From an uncultured Chloroflexia bacterium (GTDB lineage Bacteria > Chloroflexota > UBA6077 > JACCZL01), in NCBI GenBank assembly GCA_963765765.1, contig CAVXYC010000026.1, positions 1-64,000 of the forward strand: a stretch of 64,000 bases of DNA, read 5' to 3'. Position numbers and translations under genes: made by a program. Shown here one piece after another: positions 901-15,351 of this stretch; the stretch's first letter is position 1; each line of letters begins with the position of its first letter. A model generated the notes under the pieces. The model had not been told where the DNA came from. It made no database searches and saw only the letters and a list, made by a program, of their open reading frames with translations.

Positions 901-2194
901 GCAATTACCTGGCCATCGCTGGGGTCACAGCCACGCTCGTGCAATTGCTGCAGGAGGCCCTACGCTCGACTTCAACGGAGCGCAGGTCTCGGCCGGTCGG
1001 CCTGACGCGGACGCGGGACCCAATGCCGATCCTGCCATCCGGGTGTTTCTGTACCGAGTCGAACCCAATGCCGATTGGCGAAACGACGATCTGCCGACGC
1101 GAAACGGCGATGGCGCCGTCATGCAACGCCCGCAAGCGGCCCTGACGCTCCAATACCTGATCTCATTTATTGGCAACGAGGCCGAATATGCGCCGCAGCG
1201 GCTCCTGGGGTCGGCCGTGCGGACGCTGCACACGCATCCGTACCTGACCCGCGAAGAGATCGGGCGGATGGTGCAGGGCGCACTGGATGAGGATCCTAAT
1301 CACCCGCTTGGGCGCGTCGACCTGGCCGAGCAGCCTGACATCGTGCGGTTCATGCCGCTCACGCTGTCCGTGGAAGATCTCTCGAACCTTTGGTCGTCGT
1401 TCTTTCAGGCCGAGTGCCGTCTGTCAGTCGCGTATCAGGCGGCGGTCGTGCTGCTTACTCCGGATGTTTCGCCGGTGCGCGCGCTGCCCGTGCGCGATCG
1501 GCGCCTGTTCGTCTCGACGATTTTGCGTCCTCGAATCGACCGCGTTATTCCCGTCGAAGGTGAAGATATCCCGCTTCTGCCGGGCTCAGTTGTGCGCATC
1601 AGCGGCAGTCAGCTGCGAGGCGACGAGAGCACGATCGTTCGGTTCGGCGAAGCAAGCGTTACACCTCCGTCCGCGGCAATCGCCGCCGATCGCATCGAGG
1701 TAGCGGTCCCGGATGCCGTTCGCGCCGGCGCTGTGGGCCTCCGAGTCGAGCACCGGCGGGCAATGGGCGAGCCGCCCGAGCTCCGACTAGCCGGCCAGTC
1801 GAATGTCGTACCAGTCGTGGTGCATCCGCGTATCCGACCGGATGGCGGCGGCCATCTCGTTTCGATTTCCGACGTAACGAACGATCCAGACGGCAATCGT
1901 TCCGGAGTTATCGATGTGACCGTGGATCCACCGGTCGGCTTGCGTCAGCAAGTCGCCGTGCTGCTTAACGCGCTGGGCGCCGCGGGAGAGTCGTTCTCCT
2001 TCTTTGACGATCGACGAGACTCGCCTGGAGCGCCGGAGGTCACCAACACGCTCGACGTGGCCTTCACGGGCCTGCCCGCTGGTGACTATCTCGTGCGAGT
2101 GCAGGTGGACGGCGCGGAAAGTCCGCTCGACGTGGAGACCGCCCCGGGGCCCGCTCAAGGGACGTACACAGCGCCCAGGGTGACCGTTCCATGA
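897..2194 (+). CDS. DUF4255 / Pvc16-Afp16-like cap (tail terminator) protein with C-terminal IPT/Ig-like extension; frameshift near 961
   Basis: N-terminus MSNYLAIAGVTATLVQLL joins the 785..2194 frame 'VFLYRVEPNADWRN...LTLQYLIS...QRLLGSAVRTLH...LSNLWSSF...RLSVAYQAAVV'. These are DUF4255 hallmark motifs. They are followed by beta-rich 'VRISGSQL..IVRFG' and 'GDYLVRVQVDGAES'. Confidence 0.85.
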
Positions 2195-4123
2195 GCGGGA
2201 GCTGGGTGGAGGCGAACCAGCGCTACACGGCGGCTTGCATACGTCGGGTTACGGCTTTCCTGGTCTACGGACCCTCCGCGGACGTCCGCGAGATTGACAC
2301 TGAGCTTCGTGAGTGCGAAGCGGCGATGGATCGGCCGCCGGCCCTTATTGCTCTGCGCGATGCGTTCGGCCTTTCTGGATTCGAGCAGGACCTGCTGACG
2401 CTCTGCGCTGGCGTTGCACTGGACAATGGCGTACGTCGAGCCCTGGCAGAAGGTCGCGGCGAAGACTCGCGACATTCCGCACCAACGTTTGGGCTGGCGC
2501 TCGCGGTCCTTCCCAATGCCCACTGGCGGGCACTCACGCCGGCCTCGCCGCTTAGACGCTGGGGCCTCGTGGAGAGCGGACCGGGGGCGGTTATCACCGA
2601 GTGCCCACTGAGTGTAAGCGAGCGCGTGCTTCACTATATTGCCGGGATCCACTTCGTTGACGAGTCGCTTGGGATATCGGGGACCGAGGCAGCTCCCGAG
2701 CTGACCGAGGGCCAGATAGAGGTGGCACGAGGAGCAGTTGCCAGCATCGCCCGCATCCAGCGTGGGCGAGCTCCGGCTGATCCAGCTTTATGCTCCAGGA
2801 CGTGACGCCGGGCGCGGTGTCGCCGCCGCCATTGCTCAGTCGATTGGATTAACCGCCGCGATGCTACAGCCGGAAGACGTCCCGTCTGCCACTGTGGACC
2901 GGCTGGCGTTCGCCCGCAAGGTGGAGCGTGAGGCGGTGCTTGCACATCTCCTACCGGTACTGGATTGCCTTGGCACCGAGGGCGATCAGCTCAGGCCGGC
3001 TGCGCGTTTCTCGGACGAGATCGCCGGGCCGTTGATCGTAATTTCCACGCACCCGCTGGAGCTTTCACGCGAGGACGTTCGATTCTCTATCCCATCCGCC
3101 ACGACGGACGAGCGGTTGGAGGCCTGGACGGCTGCCCTGGGGCCGATGCGCGATCGACTGAATGGCCAGACTCGCCAGATCGCTGAGCTTTTTCATCTCG
3201 ACCCGACGGCCATTCGAGCGACCGCCGCGGAATTCTCTTCGCGCGTGGGTGAGCATTCTGGCGATGCGGGATCGCTGCTCTGGGAGCTAAGTCGTGCCCG
3301 CGCCCGACCGCGACTCGAGCACCTGACCGAGAGAGTGACCACCTCGGTGAGCTGGGACATGCTAGTCCTGCCTGAAGCCCAGGCTCAGATGGTTCGCGAG
3401 ATCGCCGCGCACGCCCGCTGGCGCGGGCGAGTCTATCGAGAATGGGGGTTCGGCCATGGGAACGCTCGTGGCCTCGGGATCTCTGCTCTCTTCTCCGGTC
3501 CAAGTGGCACAGGCAAGAGCATGACTGCTGAGGTTCTTGCCTGCGACCTTGGCCTTGACCTGTATCGGATCGATCTGAGCCGCGTGGTGAGCAAGTACAT
3601 CGGTGAAACGGAGAGGAACCTCGGCACCGTATTCGACGAGGCCGAAGGGGCTGGGGCGATCCTCCTCTTCGACGAGGCAGATGCCCTCTTCGGGAAGCGG
3701 AGCGAGGTGAAGGACTCCCACGATCGCTATGCAAACCTCGAGATCAGCTACCTACTCCAGCGGATGGAGGCTTATGACGGCCTGGCCATCCTCACCACAA
3801 ACCAGCGAAGCGCGCTCGATCCGGCATTTCTACGCCGCATTCGGTTCGTAGTCCAGTTCCCGTTTCCTGACGCGGCGGCGCGAGCCGAGATCTGGAAACG
3901 CACATTTCCCAGGGAGGCGCCCACCGACGGGCTGGACTACGAGCGTCTCTCCGGGCTGAACGTCGCCGGCGGAAACATCCGCAACATGGCGTTGAACGCC
4001 GCTTTCCACGCGGCGGCCACTGGCTCGCCTGTGCGGATGGAGCACGTCCTGCTGGCTGCTCGCGCCGAGTACGCGAAGCTCGAGCGCCCGCTTCCCGAAG
4101 CGGAGGTGCGCGGATGGCGATGA
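2191..4123 (+). CDS. AAA+ ATPase (Afp15/Pvc15-like); frameshift near 2760
   Basis: N-terminal winged-helix-like 'LRDAFGLSGFEQDLLTLCAGVALD..PTFGLAL..ASPLRRWGLV'. Walker A GPSGTGKS, 'DLSRVVSKYIGETERNL', Walker B ILLFDEAD, 'DSHDRYAN', second region of homology 'TTN..LDPAFLRR'. Confidence 0.92.
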
Positions 4124-4383
4124 AGCGATCCGTCTCCGTCGAATTGGCTATAGAGCAGGTCACCGTGGAGGGCGTCGGCCCGCGAAATGGTTTCGCCCTG
4201 AAGCTGGCACTGCAGCGTGAGCTGGCACGACTTGTCCGCGAGCGGGGCGTACCCCAGGGCTGGGATCACGAGAGATCCGGTCAGGTCATCGACATTCCGT
4301 CGCTCCAGTGGGACGGTCGTGGCGGCGAGACGGGCCTGGCTGCGGCGCTCGCCGGTGAGCTCTACAAGGAGTTTGACCGGTGA
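4120..4383 (+). CDS. Small eCIS accessory hypothetical protein
   Basis: 87-aa ORF translationally coupled on both sides (ATGA and GTGA overlaps). Motif 'VELAIEQVTVEG...LALQRELARL...LAAALAGELY'. Confidence 0.7.
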   Translation: MKRSVSVELAIEQVTVEGVGPRNGFALKLALQRELARLVRERGVPQGWDHERSGQVIDIPSLQWDGRGGETGLAAALAGELYKEFDR

Positions 4384-7300
4384 GTGACCGCATGGCGGCG
4401 GTCGTCGAGCGCGCACGCAAGCCTGCCGGGAACGCGCGAGTGAAGGTAGCCGGACAGTCTGCCGTCGATTCGCTTCCCGCGGCTGATGCCCAGCGAATCG
4501 AGCTTCCGTACCGCGATCGCCTGGAGGAGCGCTTCGGACGACCCCTGGACCAATTGAAGGTCTTCTCAGGGGCGGCTGTCGAGGACGAGCTGCACTCCAT
4601 GTCCGCCGCGGCGGCGAGCCGTGACGGCGTCATTTTTCTGGCCGATTCTCATCCGCCCATGGAGGTGGTGGCGCACGAAGTCGCGCACGCGCTGCAGTCT
4701 GAGAAGCCGGGCGTATCGCGCTCGGTTGAGCCGGAGGGCTCACCGGCCGAAATTGAGGCAGCGCGAGTAGCCAGGGAAACCAACCGGTCGGGCAGTCTTC
4801 AAGCGCCTGTTACGGTGGGCGAGGGCATCGGACCCGGGACGCTGGCGCTCTTGCGACTCAGCCCACCGAGCTCAACAGAGACACCCACGATCTCGCCTAC
4901 GGCCTCGAAGCTTGACGTGCCCGCTGCCGAGGCCGTCACCGAGTCACCGACGTCGACTCAGGCAGATACGGCTGGTCCGACGGCGGCTCCGTGCCATGCC
5001 CCAGACGGAGTCCGGCGCCGCGCCGGCCGAAGATGCCTTCGAACTTCCTCCGTCGCCCGAGCTGACCGTCTCGGCCGAGCAGGTAGCGGAGCGTGAAGCC
5101 GCTCTTGCCGAGGCAGAAGCGGCATTGGCTGCCGCGTCCACCACCACGGGCGCTCTGGAGGCGTATGCCGCTGCCCCGCCCACGCTCAAGGCTCAGCGGG
5201 CCGGCACGCTCGAGTCCGACATCGCCGGCCTCGCCCAGACGGAGACTCAGGAGCTGCAGGCGGATGTTCCTGAGCTGCACGCATCACTGAGTGGCGCTGA
5301 GGAGCCCGCCGAAGCGGTTCCCGTCCTGGCGCCACCCGCTGAAGCCGTGACGCTGGAGGAAGGCGTCGTTGCCCCCGCACCTGAGCCGGAGGTCGCAGAT
5401 GTGCCGTCGCCCGGGCCGTTCGAGGCTGTGGCGGATGTAACGCGCGCGTTCAACGGAATCGTCGACCCGGATCCGAACGCGTTCGCGGACCAGATCGGGG
5501 AATCGCTGGGCGCGGTTCAGACCACGGACCCAGACGTCCCGCAATCTCCCGGACCCCCGCCAGGGATTCCGCTCGGCGGTGAGACGGACCCCGAGCGCAT
5601 GGCTGAGATCGAGTCCGCGGGCAGTGCAGAGTCAGCCGGCGCCCGCGCCGGGGCCGCGCAAGCTGTCGTTGAAGGTCCCGGGCCAGAACGCGTGCAGCCA
5701 ACATCGCTCGATGAGCCCTATCAGGTCGGCGCGTTGACGGTACCCGTTATCAGCGGCGCTCCCGTGCCCGAGGGGCCTGAAACGTATGTCGCGATGGCGC
5801 TGCCGCCGGAGGTTCAGGTCGCATTTGACGAGCAGCAGCACGCCGCCATGGAAGCGAGCATGTCCCAGGCCGTCGGCCAGGCCGAAGTAGCCACGACCGA
5901 GCGGGATACGGCCAAGGAGACCGCGGTCGCCGAGGCGGAGGCCGGCGTCGCCAGGCTCAATGAGGAAGCCGACGGCCAGCAATCCACAGCGGTCCTGGCG
6001 TCGCGTACCGAGATCCAGACCGCGCGCCAGACCACGCTCGATGCCCAACAGGCCGAGGTCGAGCGCGTCGAGACGGAAGCGTCCGTTCAGCGGCTCGCCG
6101 ATGAGGAGCGGATCGGCACACGTGTGACTGATGACCAGGCCTTGATCGACGGTAAGTACGTTGAGGCCGAGGGCCAGATCCAGGACCAGGTCGCGGAAGG
6201 CGAGCGGCAAGCCGAGGCGAAGAAGCTCGAGGCCGAGCAGGATGCCGAGAACGAGAGCTGGTGGGACCGAGCCGTCAGCTTCGTCAAGGAGGCATTCAAC
6301 GCGCTGATCGACGCGATCGGCGAAGTCTTTGACGCCATTCGAAGCGCGGTGAACGGGATACTCGACGCGGTGAAAGAAGCTGCCCTCGCGATCATCGACG
6401 CCGTGGCCGGCTTCATCAAGGACGCGATCGCGGCCTACGGCGAGCTCCTCAAGGCTGCCATCAACGGACTCATCGGCGAGATCTTCCCGGGGCTGGCCGA
6501 AACGCTGAACGCCGCCATCGACACGGCCGTCTCGACCGCGCAAGCGGCGGTCGACGTTGTTGCCGATGGACTCAAGGCCGGTGTCTCGGCGCTCGTGGAA
6601 GGCCTGCGCGCCGGGTCTGAACAAGATCATCGACGCGTATCAGGCCGCCATAACCTTCGCGCTCAGCATTGCGGCGGCCGCCATCACCGGTGATTGGGGC
6701 GCCCTGGCGCGTCGGGTTCTGGAGGCCGTCCTCCGCCTTATCGGTGTCGATCCGGAGAGCTTCTACGCGTTTGTCGGACGCGCCGAAGAGACCTTCAACA
6801 TCATCGTGAATGACCCGCTTGGATTCCTCGGGAACCTGGTCAGCGCGGTCGTGGGTGGCGTCCAGCGGTTCGCCGACAACATCGTCGCCCACCTCCAGGT
6901 CGGTGTGATCGGCTGGCTCACGGGTGCTCTCGGGAGCGCCGGTATCGTGCTGCCTCCGGCGTTCGACCTCCTCGGCGTGCTGGATCTTGCACGCCAGATC
7001 CTCGGCCTTACGTGGGACCACTTGCGGAAGAAGGCCGTGACGCTCATTGGCGAACAGAACGTGGAGCGGCTCGAGGTCGTCTACGAGTTCATCGAGACGC
7101 TCGTGACCGAGGGATGGGGCGGACTCTGGGCAAAGATCATGGACAGCGTCGCGACCGTCCGAGACCTCGTGTTCGAGGGTATCAAGTCGTTCCTGCTGGA
7201 GAAGATCATCATCGCGGCGGTCACAAAGATCGCCAGCCTGTTCAGCCCGGTCGGGGCAATCGTTCAACTCGTGATCACCGCCTGGAACCTTTTCACGTTC

Positions 7301-9330
7301 CTACGCGACCAGCTTGCCCGAATTGTCCAGGTGGTCCAGTCGGTCATCGATGCGATTGGCGACATCGCTCGCGGCGTCCTAGAAGGCGCCATCGCGAAGG
7401 TGGAAAGCGTTCTCGGCAGCCTTCTGCCCATCGCCATAGACTTGCTGGCGCGGCTCCTCGGACTGGGCAACGTTGGCGCCCGGGTGAAGGAGATCGTTGA
7501 GCAGATTCGGGCGATGGTGGACAAGGCGGTCGATGCGCTTATTCAGCGCACCGTGGCGCTGTTCAAGGGGGGCGGGAAGGGGGTTGCTGCGCCTGGGACC
7601 GACGCCGGGACCGACACCACGATGGTCGCCGACGCAGGCGTCCCGTCAGCCGAAGAAGCCGACAGCGATACGGTGACAGAGACCTTCCGTGTCCCTGGCG
7701 AGGAGCACATTCTGCGCGCGGTGGTTGCGGGTGATGAGGCCGTTCCTGAGATGGCCAGCGGCGAGTTCCACGGACTCGTTAAGAGGGTGACTCAGCTCAC
7801 GGACGCTCTTGACGCGAAGTATAGAAATCCGAAGGACACGGACCTATACGTCGGGGACACTCGAGCCGCGGAGCTCAAGGTGGAGTTCAGGACGATAGTT
7901 CAAATGGCGTCGGACCTTGTGATGACCCTCGGTGCGGCAAAGGCTCCACCTTCAGCCAGTGAGGAGGAAAAGAAAGCGGCGGAGAAGAAGGAGCGGAAGA
8001 TCGTCGCTGATGGGTTTGTAGCACTGCGACACAAGTTTGAGGGTCTCGACCTCGTAGAAGAACTTGACCTGACTAAGCTCAGCCCTGGCCACGGACCAAA
8101 GCCGCTCGGAATGGCCTCATGGGGCCGCAGTTGGGGTTTCCAGGTCAACCCGTTGTCCGTCGCATCGCTAGGGAAAGGGCAGGGCGCGAGCGGACCCGTT
8201 CCAGGATGGAAAATTTTGCCCTTCTACGAACGGGGACACCTCGTGGCTAATTCCCTCGGCGGCCCAGGTGGAGACGAGAACCTTGTGCCGATGTCGGGGG
8301 CGACCAATCGGAGGAAGCCGGCATCCAAAAAATGGAAGACAGTCTTCGCTTCGCGCTCGACCAGATGGTCAAAAAGCCTGACGTGTACAACTTCGAGAAC
8401 GGACAGTACGAATTCGACTATCGAGGAGTCGTCACCGACTACTGGGAAGCACCCACGCTCCAGGAGGATCTCGATGAACATGGAGTCGCGTTGCCACTTT
8501 CCGGTTCAAACGCTGTTCTTGTTTGCGAGCACTGGCGGTGCGTCGAAGGGCATCAGTGACCAGCAGATTCTCGCGTGCATTCAGCCGCCGAGATCGGCCT
8601 CGATCCGTCCGCGCTGGCTGATCTGACGCAGCGGTTAGCGACGTGGGCCCTATTCCGTGACGACATCGCCCAACTACGGGCCGAGATGCGCGAGTCCATC
8701 GACGCGTTGGCAGGGGAGGAAGAGGACCAGCTCGACTTGCGAGTACGGAAAAGGCGCAAGATGCCGCGGCCCAGGAGGCTGGCGCCATTCTGGAAGCGCT
8801 AGACGTCGGAGTATGGACAAGTCCAAGAATTCAGAGGGCGCATTCTGCGTCTTTCAGATCCCGCGCCATCGGAGATTCACGCGACGATTGCCATGGTCGT
8901 CGCCCAGGCTTCCCGAGATTCTGCGCGTGCCGATCTGAACACCGCACAGGGTGAGCTCAGGTCAGCTCAAGCCGAGTTAGAGGCGGCAGCGGCCAGTCTA
9001 CCCGCCGAAACGGATAGCAGCTCCGTAGCAGGCCAGGCATTGCAGGCTGCGCTTGATAGGGTCTCCGTCGCTGAGACGACGGTCAACGATGCTCGGAAGC
9101 GATATGTCGATGCCCGTGAGCTGCTCACGGCCGTGGAAGCGGGAGTTGACGTCGTCAAACTCGCCAGCAACGTTCGCCGTCATGCTCGCTTTCCGATTCC
9201 TTCCCGCAAAACATCAAGGCTTACGCGACAGTCGAGAAGGAGCCTGAAGTGGGGCGAGGCCAGCTGGAGACCCTACGCAGGGAATCAAAGCTGATGTCTC
9301 CACACGGTGATGGTCCGGAATGGGTGGACT
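4380..9330 (+). CDS. Giant DUF4157 (eCIS core domain) effector: DUF4157 + acidic/Ala linker + tape-measure-like helical region + His-Me endonuclease-like toxin domain; several frameshifts, 3' end approximate
   Basis: Joined ORFs 4380-5096, 4912-6693, 6557-8626, 8332-8559, 8575-8802 and 8893-9294. DUF4157 'LPYRDRLEERFGRPLDQLKVF...AHEVAHALQ' (HExxH near 4674). 'ESWWDRAVSFVK' and a hydrophobic helical repeat region. Nuclease motif 'YERGHLVANSLGGPG..ENLVPMS..TN' at 8225-8310. Confidence 0.78.
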
Positions 9331-9402
9331 GATGGTCAACTGTACACGCGCGAGAGTGTTACCCAGCCAACTGCGGCGAATCCGGTCCAGTGGTAGGGAG
9401 CA

Positions 9403-10059
9403 TCTTCGACCTCAAGCCCGCTTTCCCCACCGGTCTTCAAGGGCGCCCTGATCGCGGCAGATCCCCTGCGGCCGCTGTCGAGCGTGGTTGTCTTCCAATA
9501 CAACCCCGAAACCATGACGCGCACGCTCACCGCACGGACGACGGGCGGTGAGGCCGGCTCGGGGCCGCTGCGGATCTCAGGGCCGCCGGAGGAGACGCTT
9601 AAGCTGGCGATCGAGATCGACGCTACCGACCAGCTCGAGTCCGGCGATCCGATTGCCTCCGCTCTGGGCATCGCGCCGGCTCTGGCTGCGCTGGAGCTGC
9701 TGCTCTACCCGAGCTCGGGCGTCGTCATCGCAAACGAGGTGCTCGCCCGAGCAGGAGTTATTGAGATCATTCCAATGGAAGCGCCGCTCACCTTGCTTGT
9801 CTGGGGCGCGCGGCGCATCCTGCCTGTCCGTGTCACGGACTTCTCGATCGCTGAAGAAGCGTTCGACACGGCGCTCAACCCTATCCGCGCCAAGGTGGAT
9901 CTCGGGCTACGGGTGGTCAGCTACTACGACTCAGGACTCCTGAGCGCCTCGGGCGCGCTATCTCTGGCGGCGCATATCGCCCGTGAGGTCCTGGGCACCA
10001 TGAACACGGCCGAATCCGTGGCTGCCGCGGTTCGCTCCGTCACCGGGCAGGGAGGGTAA
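9403..10059 (+). CDS. Afp7/Pvc7-like CIS tube-initiator-type protein (start codon uncertain)
   Basis: 'SPPVFKGALI..VVVFQYNPETMTRTL...PPEETLKLAIEIDATD...LTLLVWGARRILPVRVTDFSIAEEAFDTALNPIRAKVDLGLRV'. This is typical of the gene preceding LysM in eCIS loci. The frame is open from the TAG at 9394-9396. Confidence 0.8.
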   Translation, partial: SSTSSPLSPPVFKGALIAADPLRPLSSVVVFQYNPETMTRTLTARTTGGEAGSGPLRISGPPEETLKLAIEIDATDQLESGDPIASALGIAPALAALELLLYPSSGVVIANEVLARAGVIEIIPMEAPLTLLVWGARRILPVRVTDFSIAEEAFDTALNPIRAKVDLGLRVVSYYDSGLLSASGALSLAAHIAREVLGTMNTAESVAAAVRSVTGQGG

Positions 10060-12474: not shown

Positions 12475-12840
12475 ATGCCTGATCTCGACTACCCGTTCGC
12501 GTTTGGGGCAGACGGCCGCACCGCTACCACCGGTTCGCCTGACCACGTGCGTGACATGGTGGAGCAGGTTCTGTTCACTGCCCCGGGCGAGCGTGTGAAT
12601 CGACCGGATTTCGGCAGCGGCCTACTCGGTCTGCTCTTCGAGCCGAACAGTGAGGCACTCGCGGCCGCTACTCGGGCCCGAGTAGAAGGCGCGCTCACTC
12701 AGTGGCTGGCAGAGGTGATCCAGCTCGAGAGCGTCGTGGTCCACTCGCAGGATGCCCTCCTCGAAGTGATCGTGCAGTACGTGGTTCGCCAGACGCAAGA
12801 GCGACACACGGAGCGCATCCGCGGACCGGTGGCCCCATGA
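12475..12840 (+). CDS. GPW/gp25 family baseplate (sheath initiator) protein
   Basis: 'DYPFAFGADGRTA...HVRDMVEQVLFTAPGERVNRPDFGSGL..LLFEPN' gp25 signature. GGAGG upstream of ATG 12475. Confidence 0.92.
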   Translation: MPDLDYPFAFGADGRTATTGSPDHVRDMVEQVLFTAPGERVNRPDFGSGLLGLLFEPNSEALAAATRARVEGALTQWLAEVIQLESVVVHSQDALLEVIVQYVVRQTQERHTERIRGPVAP

Positions 12841-15351
12841 CGATCTATTTCTGCTGCAATGAGAATCGACGCGAGGCGGTTCGCGCCAGTGGTTTGCTGA
12901 ACGGCATCGATTTCCTCGAAGTCGTTGACGGGCCAGGGGTGCCCGAAGCGGATCGCCAGCGCCTTCTCCAGGTGCACATGATCAACCCGCCGGATGCGAC
13001 GCTCCTGGCGATTGGCCTACGCAACGTCGTGATCAGCGGAGGTGTGCGGGTCAAGAATATTCGCGCAACTGGGATCAGCTGGACCGGGCACGTTCTGACG
13101 GTCCGTGTGGATCGCCCCGGTGATTTCTCGCAATACACGCTGGGTTTACGGACGCTAGCCGGTGCCACGCTGGCCGGGATGGACGAGCGGCTCTCGGAGA
13201 TCGAGTTCAGCTTCAAGATAGAGTGCCCGTCTGACTTCGACTGTGCCGACCAGTCGATCTGTCCTCCCGAAATCATGGATGTGCCCGAGATCGACTACCT
13301 GGCTCGGGACTACGAGAGCTTCCGCCAGCTCATGCTCGATCGACTGGCCATGATCTCTCCGGACTGGCGGGAGCGTAACCCGTCCGATCTCGGCGTTGTC
13401 GCTGGTGGAGGCGCTCGCCTACAGCGCCGACCACCTGAGCTATCAGCTCGACGCGGCCGCGATGGAATCCACGCTCGCAAGCGCCCGATCGCGTATCTCC
13501 GCGCGGCGGCACGCCCGGCTCGTCGATTACCGCCCCAGTGACGGTAGTAATGCTCGGACCTGGGTGCAGATCCGAGTCGCGTCGGGGCAGTCGGGAGTCC
13601 TGGTGCCGGCCGGTACGCAGCTTCTGACACGTGTCCCGAACCAGGGGGCGCGGGTGGAGCCGGATTCATCCGCGTATCGGGAGGCCCTGGAGCGCGGACC
13701 AGTGATCTTCGAAACGATGCATGACGTGGTCCTGGATGCGTCATGCAACGAGATCGAGCTCTACACCTGGGGCGACGAGGAATGCTGCCTGGAAGCTGGC
13801 GCGCTGACAGCCACACTGCGTGGCCATCCGGCGATAGTGCCAGGCGATGTCCTGCTTCTGAAGGAGCGCCTTGGTCCCAGAACGGGCAACCCGGCCGATG
13901 CGGACCCCACGCACCGCCACGCCGTGCGGATTACCCACGTAGTGCCCACCGAGGACCTGCTGGGTGGCCAGTTCGAGGAGCCAAAGCACAGCGATCCGGT
14001 GCCGGTCACGGAGATTACCTGGCACCAGGGAGACATCCTGCCGTTCTCACTGTGTATCTCGGCACGCGATGGTGAAGCGCTGCATCAGAACGTTAGCGTC
14101 GCGCTCGGAAACATCGTCCTGGCCGATCACGGCCGTACGCTCCGAGTCGAGCCGGCCGGTGAAGTGCCGGAGCCGGATCCCCGACTGGCACCGCCGGCTA
14201 TCGCACAAGCGTGTGAGCCCGCCGAATCTCGATCGCGCCCGGCGCGTTTCGCGCTTCAAGTGCCGGAACCCGATCTGACCATGACCGGCACGATTGGCCG
14301 CGCTCTGACCGGCCAGGACCCACGCGTGTGGGCGCCATTCGATCCGGTGGCGGCAGCCGCCTCCGCTCGGCCGACACGGTGGGACTCACGTGTCACGCTT
14401 CCGTCGGTGTCCCTGGACGATGACGATGGACGCCACTGGCGACCTGTCAGGGACCTGCTTGCCAGCGGCCCCTTTCACCCTGAGCTCGTGGCCGAGGTTG
14501 GTAACGATAGCGTCGCTCAGCTTCGGTTCGGCGATGGTGAATACGGACTGCGGCCGCGTGCTGCTCTGGTTCTGGACATGACGTTTCGCCGGGGCAATGG
14601 GCCCTCCGGAAACATCGGAGCGGACTCGTTGGCGCACATCGTCACCACGGATTCGCGTATCGAGTCGGTGCTCAACCCGCTGCCTGCAATTGGCGGATCA
14701 GGCGCCGAGGCCATCGATCGAACCCGGCAGGATGCGCCGCAAGCATTCCGCGTCCAGGAGCGGGCCGTTACTCCGGAGGACTATGCAGTCATGGCAGAGC
14801 GGCATCCCGAGGTCCAGCGGGCCGTGGCGACCGAGCGGTACACGGGAAGCTGGTACACCATCTTCTTAACGGTAGACCGACTGAACGGCGTCCCCGTGGA
14901 TGCGGTGTTCGAGGCCGAGCTCCGAGCGTTTCTCGAGCGTTTTCGAATGGCCGGCCACGATCTGGAGATCGATGGACCGCGCTTCGTCGCCCTAGAGATC
15001 ACGCTTCGTGTATGCGTCAAGCCCGACTACTACCGATCTGATGTTGCTCGGGCGATACTCGACGTCCTGGGCCGATCGCGGCAGCCCGATGGGACGACCG
15101 CGTTCTTCCATCCCGACAACTTCACCTTCGGCGAGTCGGTCACCCTCAGCGCTGTGCTGGCCGCTGCTCAATCCGTGGAGGGTGTCCAGTTCGTTCAGCC
15201 GGTGACCTTCCGTCGGATGGGTGACGATCGCTCGGACGCCCTGCGTGTCGGTGAGATCACCATGGGTCGTCTCGAGATCGCGCGCCTGGACAACGACCCA
15301 AGCTTTGTCGAGCGGGGCACGCTCAAGCTCGAGATGGACGGTGGGCGATGA
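12837..15351 (+). CDS. Putative baseplate assembly protein (baseplate J-like, Afp11 type); frameshift near 13398
   Basis: 'NGIDFLEV', 'IDYLARDYESFRQLMLDRL...DLG..LVEALAY.AD.LSYQLD', 'LRFGDGEYG', 'QERAVTPEDYA', 'FFHPDNFTFG'. Confidence 0.88.

Follow-up and report, generated by a model that had tools for sequence, protein, structure and literature searches.

A probable Tme-type, tape-measure-related effector gene with a predicted nuclease tip in a contractile injection system operon of an uncultured Chloroflexia bacterium

The DNA analyzed here is a stretch of 64,000 nucleotides (the window) from an uncultured Chloroflexia bacterium (assembly GCA_963765765.1, contig CAVXYC010000026.1), near the start of which lie genes for an extracellular contractile injection system (eCIS). 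All positions are those of the window on its forward (+) strand, and reading frames are labeled by the position modulo 3 (pos%3). For the region from 4380 to 9330, an earlier note made from the letters alone had proposed a polymorphic DUF4157 effector with a nuclease tip. This region contains no single long open reading frame (ORF) and is covered by overlapping ORFs at 4380-5096, 4912-6693, 6557-8626, 8332-8559, 8575-8802, and 8893-9294. Every peptide quoted in the note was located in the window, with AHEVAHALQ in frame pos%3=0, DKAVDALIQRTVALFKGG, ETFRVPGEEHILRAVV...EMAS, and YERGHLVANSLGGPGGDENLVPMSGATN in pos%3=2, and QKMEDSL in pos%3=1. Homologue statistics given below refer to the 120 proteins listed among 296 that scored E≤1e-3 with a 563-residue piece of the window as the query. 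We consider it very probable that the segment from 4380 to about 8800 (+) is one Tme-type, tape-measure-related contractile injection system (CIS) effector gene encoding about 1,470 amino acids, the frame breaks being indel errors of the assembly. The features of this gene are as follows.

4380-5003, + strand: N-terminal part in frame pos%3=0, consisting of a short stretch, a DUF4157/eCIS_core zincin-like domain (core about 4503-4706), and then a Ser/Thr/Pro/Ala-rich stretch
About 4991-5009, + strand: frame break 1 (pos%3 0 to 1), where seven homologues switch and no residues are lost
5005-6613, + strand: acidic linker, coiled coil, and first tape-measure-like helices in frame pos%3=1
6614/6615, + strand: frame break 2 (pos%3 1 to 2), where seven of seven homologues switch
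6614-7573, + strand: hydrophobic helical tape-measure-like module of ~320 residues in frame pos%3=2, ending in DKAVDALIQRTVALFKGG
7574-7678, + strand: variable linker of ~35 residues, rich in Gly/Ala/Thr/Asp, after ALFKGG; half of the listed homologues stop aligning here
7679-7759, + strand: conserved junction motif ETFRVPGEEHILRAVVAGDEAVPEMAS, defined by a hidden Markov model (HMM) and an alignment
7772-8041, + strand: three-helix bundle preceding the nuclease in the AlphaFold2 model
8042-8799, + strand: predicted EndA/NucA/Sda1-type His-Me nuclease domain, with the catalytic stretch YERGH...ENLVPMSGATN at 8225-8308; cut by break 3 and probably by two more breaks
About 8308-8320, + strand: frame break 3 (pos%3 2 to 1), inside the nuclease domain

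All 120 listed homologues are single ORFs. The best of them, a protein of 1,468 residues from Microbacterium sp. DT81.1, shows 63% identity across the entire 563-residue query; the nearest homologues are 1,463 to 1,480 residues long, and intact homologues sharing the layout measure 1,400 to 1,700 residues. In tblastn comparisons, seven intact homologues were collinear with the window across the breaks and changed frame at three places, which bears out the earlier view that the pieces have to be joined across frame breaks. The start was placed at a GTG at 4380, where the homologues P0004 and P0008 align from their own residue 1 (tblastn). The gene ends between two frame-1 stops, at 8557-8559 or 8800-8802, corresponding to about 1,390 to 1,473 residues, and the stop at 8800 is the more likely end. 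Beyond about 8500, frame 2 is best for four of five homologues at 8513-8587 (scores of 31 to 45), and frame 1 is collinear with four of five at 8560-8637 (scores of 29 to 38). Judged from these sequence alignments, the weak frame switches suggest another two breaks, one at about 8500-8515 and one at about 8560-8590, backed by alignment scores of 27 to 45. The segment 8803-9330 matched no homologue tail and is outside the effector gene. The length of ~1,650 residues and the extension to 9330 that had been proposed earlier were therefore too large, the 3′ end having been over-extended by about 530 nucleotides.

In the N-terminal piece, Pfam detected PF13699 (DUF4157, now eCIS_core) at residues 42 to 109 with an E value of 3.4e-9 and 37.2 bits versus a cut-off of 22 bits; this is the sole match to the family in the whole genome. 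The residues of the zincin signature HExxHxxQ...E (H98, E99, H102, Q105, and E123 in the numbering of P0001) are invariant in 32 homologues, and the window has HEVAHALQ. The following piece, 5005-6613, shares 67% identity with P0001. Its first ~330 residues, which consist of 21% A, 13% E, and 11% P, form an acidic linker that is probably disordered, and they are followed by an Ala/Glu/Gln-rich coiled-coil-like stretch. Matches to PHROG families annotated as "tail length tape measure protein" span about 6220-7573. Specifically, six such families matched residues ~402 to 520 of the 5005-6613 piece (E 1.5e-7 to 4.5e-5) and four matched the 6614-7573 piece (E 9.4e-6 to 2.8e-3), and the intact orthologue P0001 was matched with an E value of 1.6e-14. 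A Kyte-Doolittle scan with 19-residue windows and a threshold of 1.6, which is a simple scan and not a dedicated transmembrane predictor, placed three clusters of hydrophobic windows in 6614-7573 (about residues 96 to 123, 185 to 230, and 265 to 285 of the piece) and one cluster in 5005-6613. The DUF4157 domain with HExxH, the long acidic Ala/Glu/Pro linker, and the hydrophobic tape-measure-like stretch named in the earlier note were thus all recovered.

AlphaFold2 was used to model the tip of the protein. In the model of the window piece, the three-helix bundle comprises helices at residues 25 to 41, 53 to 79, and 88 to 114, with predicted local distance difference test (pLDDT) values of 87 to 96, and the same bundle is present in the model of an orthologue. 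The latter model, covering a tail of 374 residues and built from an alignment of 29 rows with a mean pLDDT of 85.6, was compared with the PDB. Structural alignment of the orthologue tip gave Z scores of 12.3 for Sda1 (root mean square deviation of 2.4, 144 residues aligned), 10.6 for EndA, and 10.2 for NucA, followed by EsaD (8.2) and EndoG (8.1); matches to helical bundles (Z≤8.2) concern the three-helix part. Among the Foldseek matches listed for this model (12 of the top 17 ranks), all were NucA, EndA, Sda1, Spd1-type, or EsaD structures, with E values of 2.5e-3 to 3.4e-2. By sequence, the orthologue tip matches EssD/EsaD of Staphylococcus aureus with an E value of 3.2e-4 across D-x-G-H-L...N-L-V...N. 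PF13930 (Endonuclea_NS_2) reached 28.3 bits in the intact P0001 and 36.9 to 39.9 bits in relatives from Chloroflexus. The residues of the window fill all 16 invariant columns covered in a 30-sequence alignment, including His180 of RGH as well as Asn194 and Asn203, the two invariant Asn being those of ENLVP and ATN. These alignments and the orthologue model support the prediction of an EndA/NucA-type ββα-metal nuclease with H-N-N residues, in line with the His-Me, Endonuclea_NS_2-type assignment made earlier.

The same note had described the codon usage of the tip as less GC biased, which is true but modest. The GC content at third codon positions (GC3) is about 0.665 at 7761-8308 and 0.667 at 8320-8490, compared to 0.816 in the tape-measure-like module and 0.70 to 0.80 in neighboring genes, and overall GC drops in the tip from 0.63-0.69 to 0.58-0.62. 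In the Microbacterium orthologue, GC3 falls less, from 0.91 to 0.81. The low GC3 belongs to the tip family, and recent transfer is not strongly evidenced by it.

The effector gene is flanked by genes of the particle, which substantiates its proposed location inside an eCIS operon. In the window, a Pvc16-like cap gene (785-2191) is followed by a gene for a WHD and AAA ATPase (2191-4123), an ORF of 89 codons (4114-4383), the effector gene, and a gap of ~600 nucleotides, after which come a CIS_tube-like tube-initiator gene (9397-10059), a LysM-like ORF, and genes for a gpD-like hub, the spike, gp25, Baseplate_J, and wedge proteins. The syntenic locus with unbroken ORFs in Microbacterium sp. DT81.1 (L004), which served as the comparison cluster, has the order sheath, gp19 tube, Pvc16 cap, WHD-AAA ATPase, effector, CIS_tube, gpD hub, spike, gp25, and Baseplate_J. 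The sheath and gp19 tube genes are not visible in the window because the contig starts inside the operon. In both loci, no ORF of the cluster is longer than the effector gene, which immediately precedes the genes for the tube initiator, hub, and spike.

This arrangement closely resembles that of Tme (BN159_7576) of Streptomyces davawensis; here and below, statements on published systems follow the accessible parts of the cited sources. Tme, a protein of 2,247 residues of which ~70% is disordered, combines DUF4157 and transmembrane helices with homology to tape measures and ends in an EndA-like domain having DRGH and H-N-N; the His is required for both its toxicity and its DNase activity (PMC11126660). 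It copurifies with the spike and the tube initiator, its gene is located directly upstream of baseplate genes, and it has been proposed to insert into membranes (PMC11126660). The CIS clade of Tme includes Actinobacteria, Chloroflexota, and Proteobacteria (Nagakubo et al., Nat Commun 2024, PMC11126660). The window protein shares with Tme the N-terminal DUF4157, the long disordered and coiled-coil regions, the hydrophobic helices with remote homology to phage tape measures, and a gene that exceeds all other ORFs of its cluster in length and immediately precedes the tube-initiator and spike genes. Likened from the published description of Tme, it also shares the C-terminal EndA-like nuclease with (D/E)RGH and H-N-N. 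It differs in length, with about 1,470 versus 2,247 residues, and in the window a gap of ~600 nucleotides with an orphan ORF separates the effector from the tube-initiator gene. The published Tme peptide had no match among the 227 proteins collected. The data support the view that the window gene has each computationally checked feature of Tme as described in print. That one polypeptide may be both a tape-measure element and nuclease cargo, as the earlier note had inferred, is supported here at the level of architecture; for Tme, such a combination of roles has already been published and tested at the bench (PMC11126660). Among the collected proteins, P0124 (2,262 residues) is Tme-like in both architecture and length; it carries DUF4157 twice, includes the junction (GETHTLYF...TMASDP), and ends in a divergent PF13930-like domain. 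Its tape-measure-like module matches that of the window with an E value of 8e-118 and 38% identity.

Several observations weigh against one intact effector gene with a nuclease tip. In the window, PF13930 itself was found with an E value of 1.1e-4 and 22.8 bits, below the cut-off of 27 bits, because a frame break cuts the domain and profile positions 56 to 83 alone precede it. A 136-residue nuclease piece of the window returned only chance matches from the PDB with phmmer (E 1.7 to 4.1), the truncated nuclease half in the AlphaFold2 model of the window tip piece (7700-8308) had pLDDT values below 50, and the orthologue tip had no Foldseek match at E≤0.001 in the PDB. Since the half-domain of the window gave no confident model and had no sequence match in the PDB, the assignment of the nuclease fold draws on the 63%-identical orthologue and on the conserved catalytic residues. 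The final ~90 codons align weakly with the homologues, the last ~50 residues of which have no clear counterpart in the window, and the C-terminal part of the nuclease domain may thus be damaged or divergent. Contigs from four soil or rhizosphere runs, in which 5 to 8% of the sampled words occurred, span no break site, which decides nothing about indels.

The poorly conserved last ~90 codons and the missing coverage of the break sites in public read contigs would also suit a real pseudogene, decayed through several frameshifts and yielding no product, as would the accumulation of at least three, probably five, frame switches within 4.4 kb. We nevertheless regard decay as very unlikely, given that the aligned pieces contain no in-frame stops, that identity to homologues is equally high on either side of each break (63 to 67%), and that similar breaks hit the neighborhood and the rest of the genome. 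Specifically, 6 of the 11 genes shared with L004 each extend across two or three frames of the window, namely, those for the WHD-AAA ATPase, the effector, the gpD-like hub, the Baseplate_J protein, the 897-residue wedge protein, and the gp48-like protein. On another contig (C20, L010 1165-4032, minus strand), the essential gene rpoB is distributed over three or more overlapping ORFs, which separate domains 2-3, domains 4-5 (external-1), and domains 6-7 from one another. That six operon genes and rpoB are broken alike argues for an assembly-wide indel error and against gene decay or programmed frameshifting; the latter was rejected, as the breaks run in both directions and occur genome-wide. 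Another reading, with two or more true genes in the manner of Sle2/Sle1 of Streptomyces lividans, where a small DUF4157 protein is followed by a separate tape-measure-type effector, has hardly any chance of being correct. Split pairs of this kind are known in Actinobacteria (PMC13277306), and break 1 at ~5000 does separate the DUF4157 domain from the linker. The homologues, however, continue gap-free through this position (P0001 passes from residue 206 to 207 at 5003/5005), the listed relatives with PF13699 have it on the same polypeptide, and the remaining breaks interrupt conserved modules (6614) and the core of the nuclease (about 8310). A single gene broken by assembly errors is thus preferred, and in practice the broken ORFs, being an assembly artifact, should be annotated as one gene. 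As single-base indel errors are frequent in this genome (33 contigs, 91.8% completeness, 6.9% contamination), ORF-based readings of it need frame-aware comparison. Frame-wise GC3 fails as a frame detector in the Ala/Glu/Pro linker, where first-position GC exceeds third-position GC.

For the function of such a single protein, Tme and tailed phages suggest a scheme in which the helical part would occupy the lumen of the tube, attached to the baseplate hub by its C-proximal end, and would probably determine tube length. The N-terminal region and the AAA ATPase would take part in loading. Upon contraction the protein would be expelled, its hydrophobic helices possibly entering a membrane, and the nuclease would then degrade DNA, which could be that of a competitor or, by analogy with S. 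davawensis, that of the producer's own cells. Less likely, though deserving consideration, is that the protein is cargo only, with the tape-measure-like module mediating insertion into a membrane or nuclease translocation and with something else setting the length of the tube. The helical part alone comprises roughly 600 residues, and the whole protein appears far longer than a ruler requires. The proposed membrane insertion of Tme (PMC11126660) points in the same direction, as does AlgoCIS, where a separate protein, Alg14, is the ruler whose length sets particle length and the DUF4157 proteins Cgo1 and Cgo2 are lumen cargo (10.64898/2026.05.27.728243). Against a pure cargo role, the gene lies where tape-measure genes canonically do, ahead of those for the tube initiator and hub, and no other tape-measure candidate was found among the scanned ORFs of the window or the Microbacterium cluster, save a marginal match (E 0.006) on the orphan ORF. 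The effector is therefore probably the ruler; in the window genome, this search covered the operon from the contig start onward, the contig beginning inside the operon with the genes upstream unseen. By description, Afp14, Pvc14, and Alg14 resemble the window protein as helical ruler-type proteins whose genes lie inside the particle operon. To our knowledge, these canonical eCIS tape-measure proteins have no DUF4157 head and no toxin tip.

Related modular toxins were described before Tme. Zhang et al. (2012, PMC3482391) defined "PVC-metallopeptidase" toxins with a constant N-terminal HExxHxxQ-E zincin and variable C-terminal toxins, among them nucleases, deaminases, and Ntox4; these toxins often lack an immunity gene, and the zincin was predicted to be an autoproteolytic releasing peptidase (PMC3482391). 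DUF4157 was later named the eCIS core domain (Geller et al., 2021, PMC8213781), and in AlgoCIS it is dispensable for cargo loading (preprint 10.64898/2026.05.27.728243). The window protein is like the polymorphic DUF4157 toxins of these surveys (PMC3482391, PMC8213781) in its constant zincin head and its variable toxin tip, and in the surveys the linker sometimes exceeds 1,000 residues and an adjacent immunity gene is frequently lacking; the window protein differs in the tape-measure homology of the long linker and in the GExHxL...MAS junction, neither of which was found mentioned in the accessible text of the surveys, with supplementary figures outside the scope. A further comparison is provided by the split Sle1/Sle2 pairs of the S. 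lividans SLP particle, which have diverse C-terminal domains and one relative of which is followed by an immunity gene (Nagakubo et al., J Bacteriol 2026, PMC13277306). They are likewise tape-measure-related modular effectors with an exchangeable C-terminal domain and an association with the DUF4157 "effector core" (PMC13277306), but their DUF4157 is on a separate protein and their genes lie upstream of the sheath gene, whereas in the window the domain is fused and the gene lies upstream of baseplate genes. EndA, NucA, Sda1, and EsaD (EssD) (PDB 3owv, 4qh0, 5fgw, and 8gun) share the fold of the tip, judged from the orthologue with Z scores of 8.2 to 12.3, and the motif D/E-x-G-H-L-x-A-x-x-G-G...N-L-V...S...N. 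While these enzymes are secreted, surface-located, or delivered by the type VII secretion system and have 160 to 280 residues, the predicted nuclease of the window forms the last ~250 residues of a predicted tail-lumen protein of 1,470 residues and follows a three-helix bundle.

Comparison of the homologues showed that the tip is exchanged on a common scaffold. Of the 120 listed BLASTP alignments, 60 end at query residues 300 to 333, at or just past ALFKGG, 30 end between residues 340 and 499, and 30 reach the end of the query and thus have the tip in common. The earlier note had expected exchange after EMAS. The swapping of tips among homologues was confirmed, but conservation is first lost at the linker past ALFKGG and not after EMAS. 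Grouped by similarity, the homologue tails formed four larger clusters, with 58, 33, 16, and 6 members, and left five singletons. In 20 representatives scanned with Pfam, Endonuclea_NS_2 was found in five, including two slightly below the cut-off, and HHH_3, an AID/APOBEC-like deaminase, and Ntox4 in one each, with no family in the tails of the remaining representatives. Carriers of other tips on the same scaffold are P0052 (AID/APOBEC-like deaminase), P0038 (Ntox4), and P0027 (HHH_3).

Between scaffold and tip, the F..GE.H.L..MAS segment to which the note had drawn attention proved to be a conserved island ahead of different tips. Its consensus, F-x-v-x-G-E-x-H-T-L ... G ... M-A-S, extends over ~27 residues and mostly begins 15 to 60 residues past the tape-measure-like module, and G and H are invariant in 32 sequences bearing different tips. 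An HMM built from 44 seeds picked by a regular expression matched 82 of 118 homologue tails; the matches to the 44 seeds are circular because of this choice, and the other 38 are nonseeds. In a more diverse set of 50%-cluster representatives, 56 of 105 tails were matched at E≤1e-3, one of them being the window's own ORF. The motif was found neither in any of the 16 members of one tail cluster, which also had no Pfam family, nor in several Chloroflexus proteins with the same nuclease family, and it is accordingly common without being obligatory. It falls within no Pfam family. AlphaFold2 draws the junction as β-hairpins with pLDDT values below 50 in both the window piece and the orthologue, and a predicted complex of the DUF4157 domain (with Zn) and the junction segment, based on a 32-homologue alignment, scored 0.00, which has no bearing either way. 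In the accessible text of the literature on DUF4157/Tme-type effectors, no mention of the motif was found, with little targeted search and supplementary figures outside the scope. This widespread junction motif is the sole lead of the analysis that may be new. Tentatively, it might be a hand-over module, so far undescribed and restricted to CIS effectors of the tape-measure type, serving either as an anchor in the hub or spike cavity, like the C terminus of a tape measure, or as a site of tip cleavage. Such a site might be cut, for example, by the DUF4157 zincin in cis, the releasing peptidase predicted by Zhang et al. If this were true, the junction would mark the boundary at which new tips can be recombined, or engineered, onto the scaffold. 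It offers a concrete, testable boundary for tip-swapping or processing studies in contractile injection systems, which attract interest as tools for protein delivery.

Three further features adjoin the effector gene.

4114-4383, + strand: conserved ORF of 89 codons, overlapping the ATPase stop, its own stop overlapping the GTG start of the effector
8893-9294, + strand: orphan ORF of 133 codons, Ala/Glu-rich, in the ~600-nucleotide gap; separate from the effector and of uncertain coding status
9397-10059, + strand: tube-initiator-like gene (CIS_tube), PF19266 with E 3.2e-4 in the window and 27.0 bits in the orthologue

The 89-codon ORF is found directly upstream of the effector in three of six related loci (L004, L008, and L009; tblastn E 3e-16 to 2e-36), and no Pfam or PHROG family matched it. 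The tube-initiator gene is conserved from 9397 in L004, L007, and L008. The WHD (PF22977) and AAA (PF00004) domains at 2191-4123 (+), which form one protein of 651 residues in Microbacterium, lie in two frames in the window, with a break near 2751-2777. Between the effector and the tube initiator, the segment 8803-9396 is not conserved in any of the six related loci. The orphan ORF in it has a GC3 of 0.63, no homologue at E≤0.01 among proteins of 73 to 233 residues, no Pfam family, and marginal PHROG matches (E 0.0045 to 0.006). It weakly resembles the coiled coil of the effector family (E 2e-4 to 0.02) and may represent an immunity gene, a remnant, or noncoding sequence. In the relatives, the content of the gap varies: two Chloroflexus metagenome-assembled genomes have a small second DUF4157+DUF922 protein (L005 14104-15051 and L006 12104-13051), L008 has DUF4157 with a conserved "...PCA" C terminus (12631-13491), and L004 (14395-14970) and L009 (12291-13055) have the "...PCA" C-terminal part alone. 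The gap gene of L004 is shared with loci bearing other tips, and L007 has the same nuclease tip and a gap empty of genes. A tblastx search of 8800-9500 for a frameshifted copy of the "...PCA" gene yielded, at E≤0.01, the tube gene and short chance matches but no such copy. Given the differing contents and the empty gap of L007, no consistent immunity gene is apparent after the nuclease tip in the loci compared.

The tape-measure-like module matched 4,563 cluster representatives at E≤1e-3, 2,691 of them at E≤1e-30, among 1.84 billion. Named homologues among the matches listed come from Actinomycetota (Microbacterium, Streptomyces, and Geodermatophilus), Chloroflexota (Chloroflexus, Caldilineaceae, Thermomicrobiales, and Anaerolineae), Cyanobacteria (Nostoc and Trichormus), Acidobacteriota (Blastocatellia), and Proteobacteria (Azospirillaceae and Yoonia). 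The Tme-type effector, with scaffold and nuclease warhead in one protein, is accordingly no oddity of Streptomyces and belongs to a very large multi-phylum family with exchangeable tips. Among 41 related genomes, the module was matched in 2, including the window's own; the other is a genome of the same order with 41% identity and a different tip. With the module in 1 of 40 other related genomes, the cluster is patchy among its kin. The closest relative of the cluster lies in Microbacterium.

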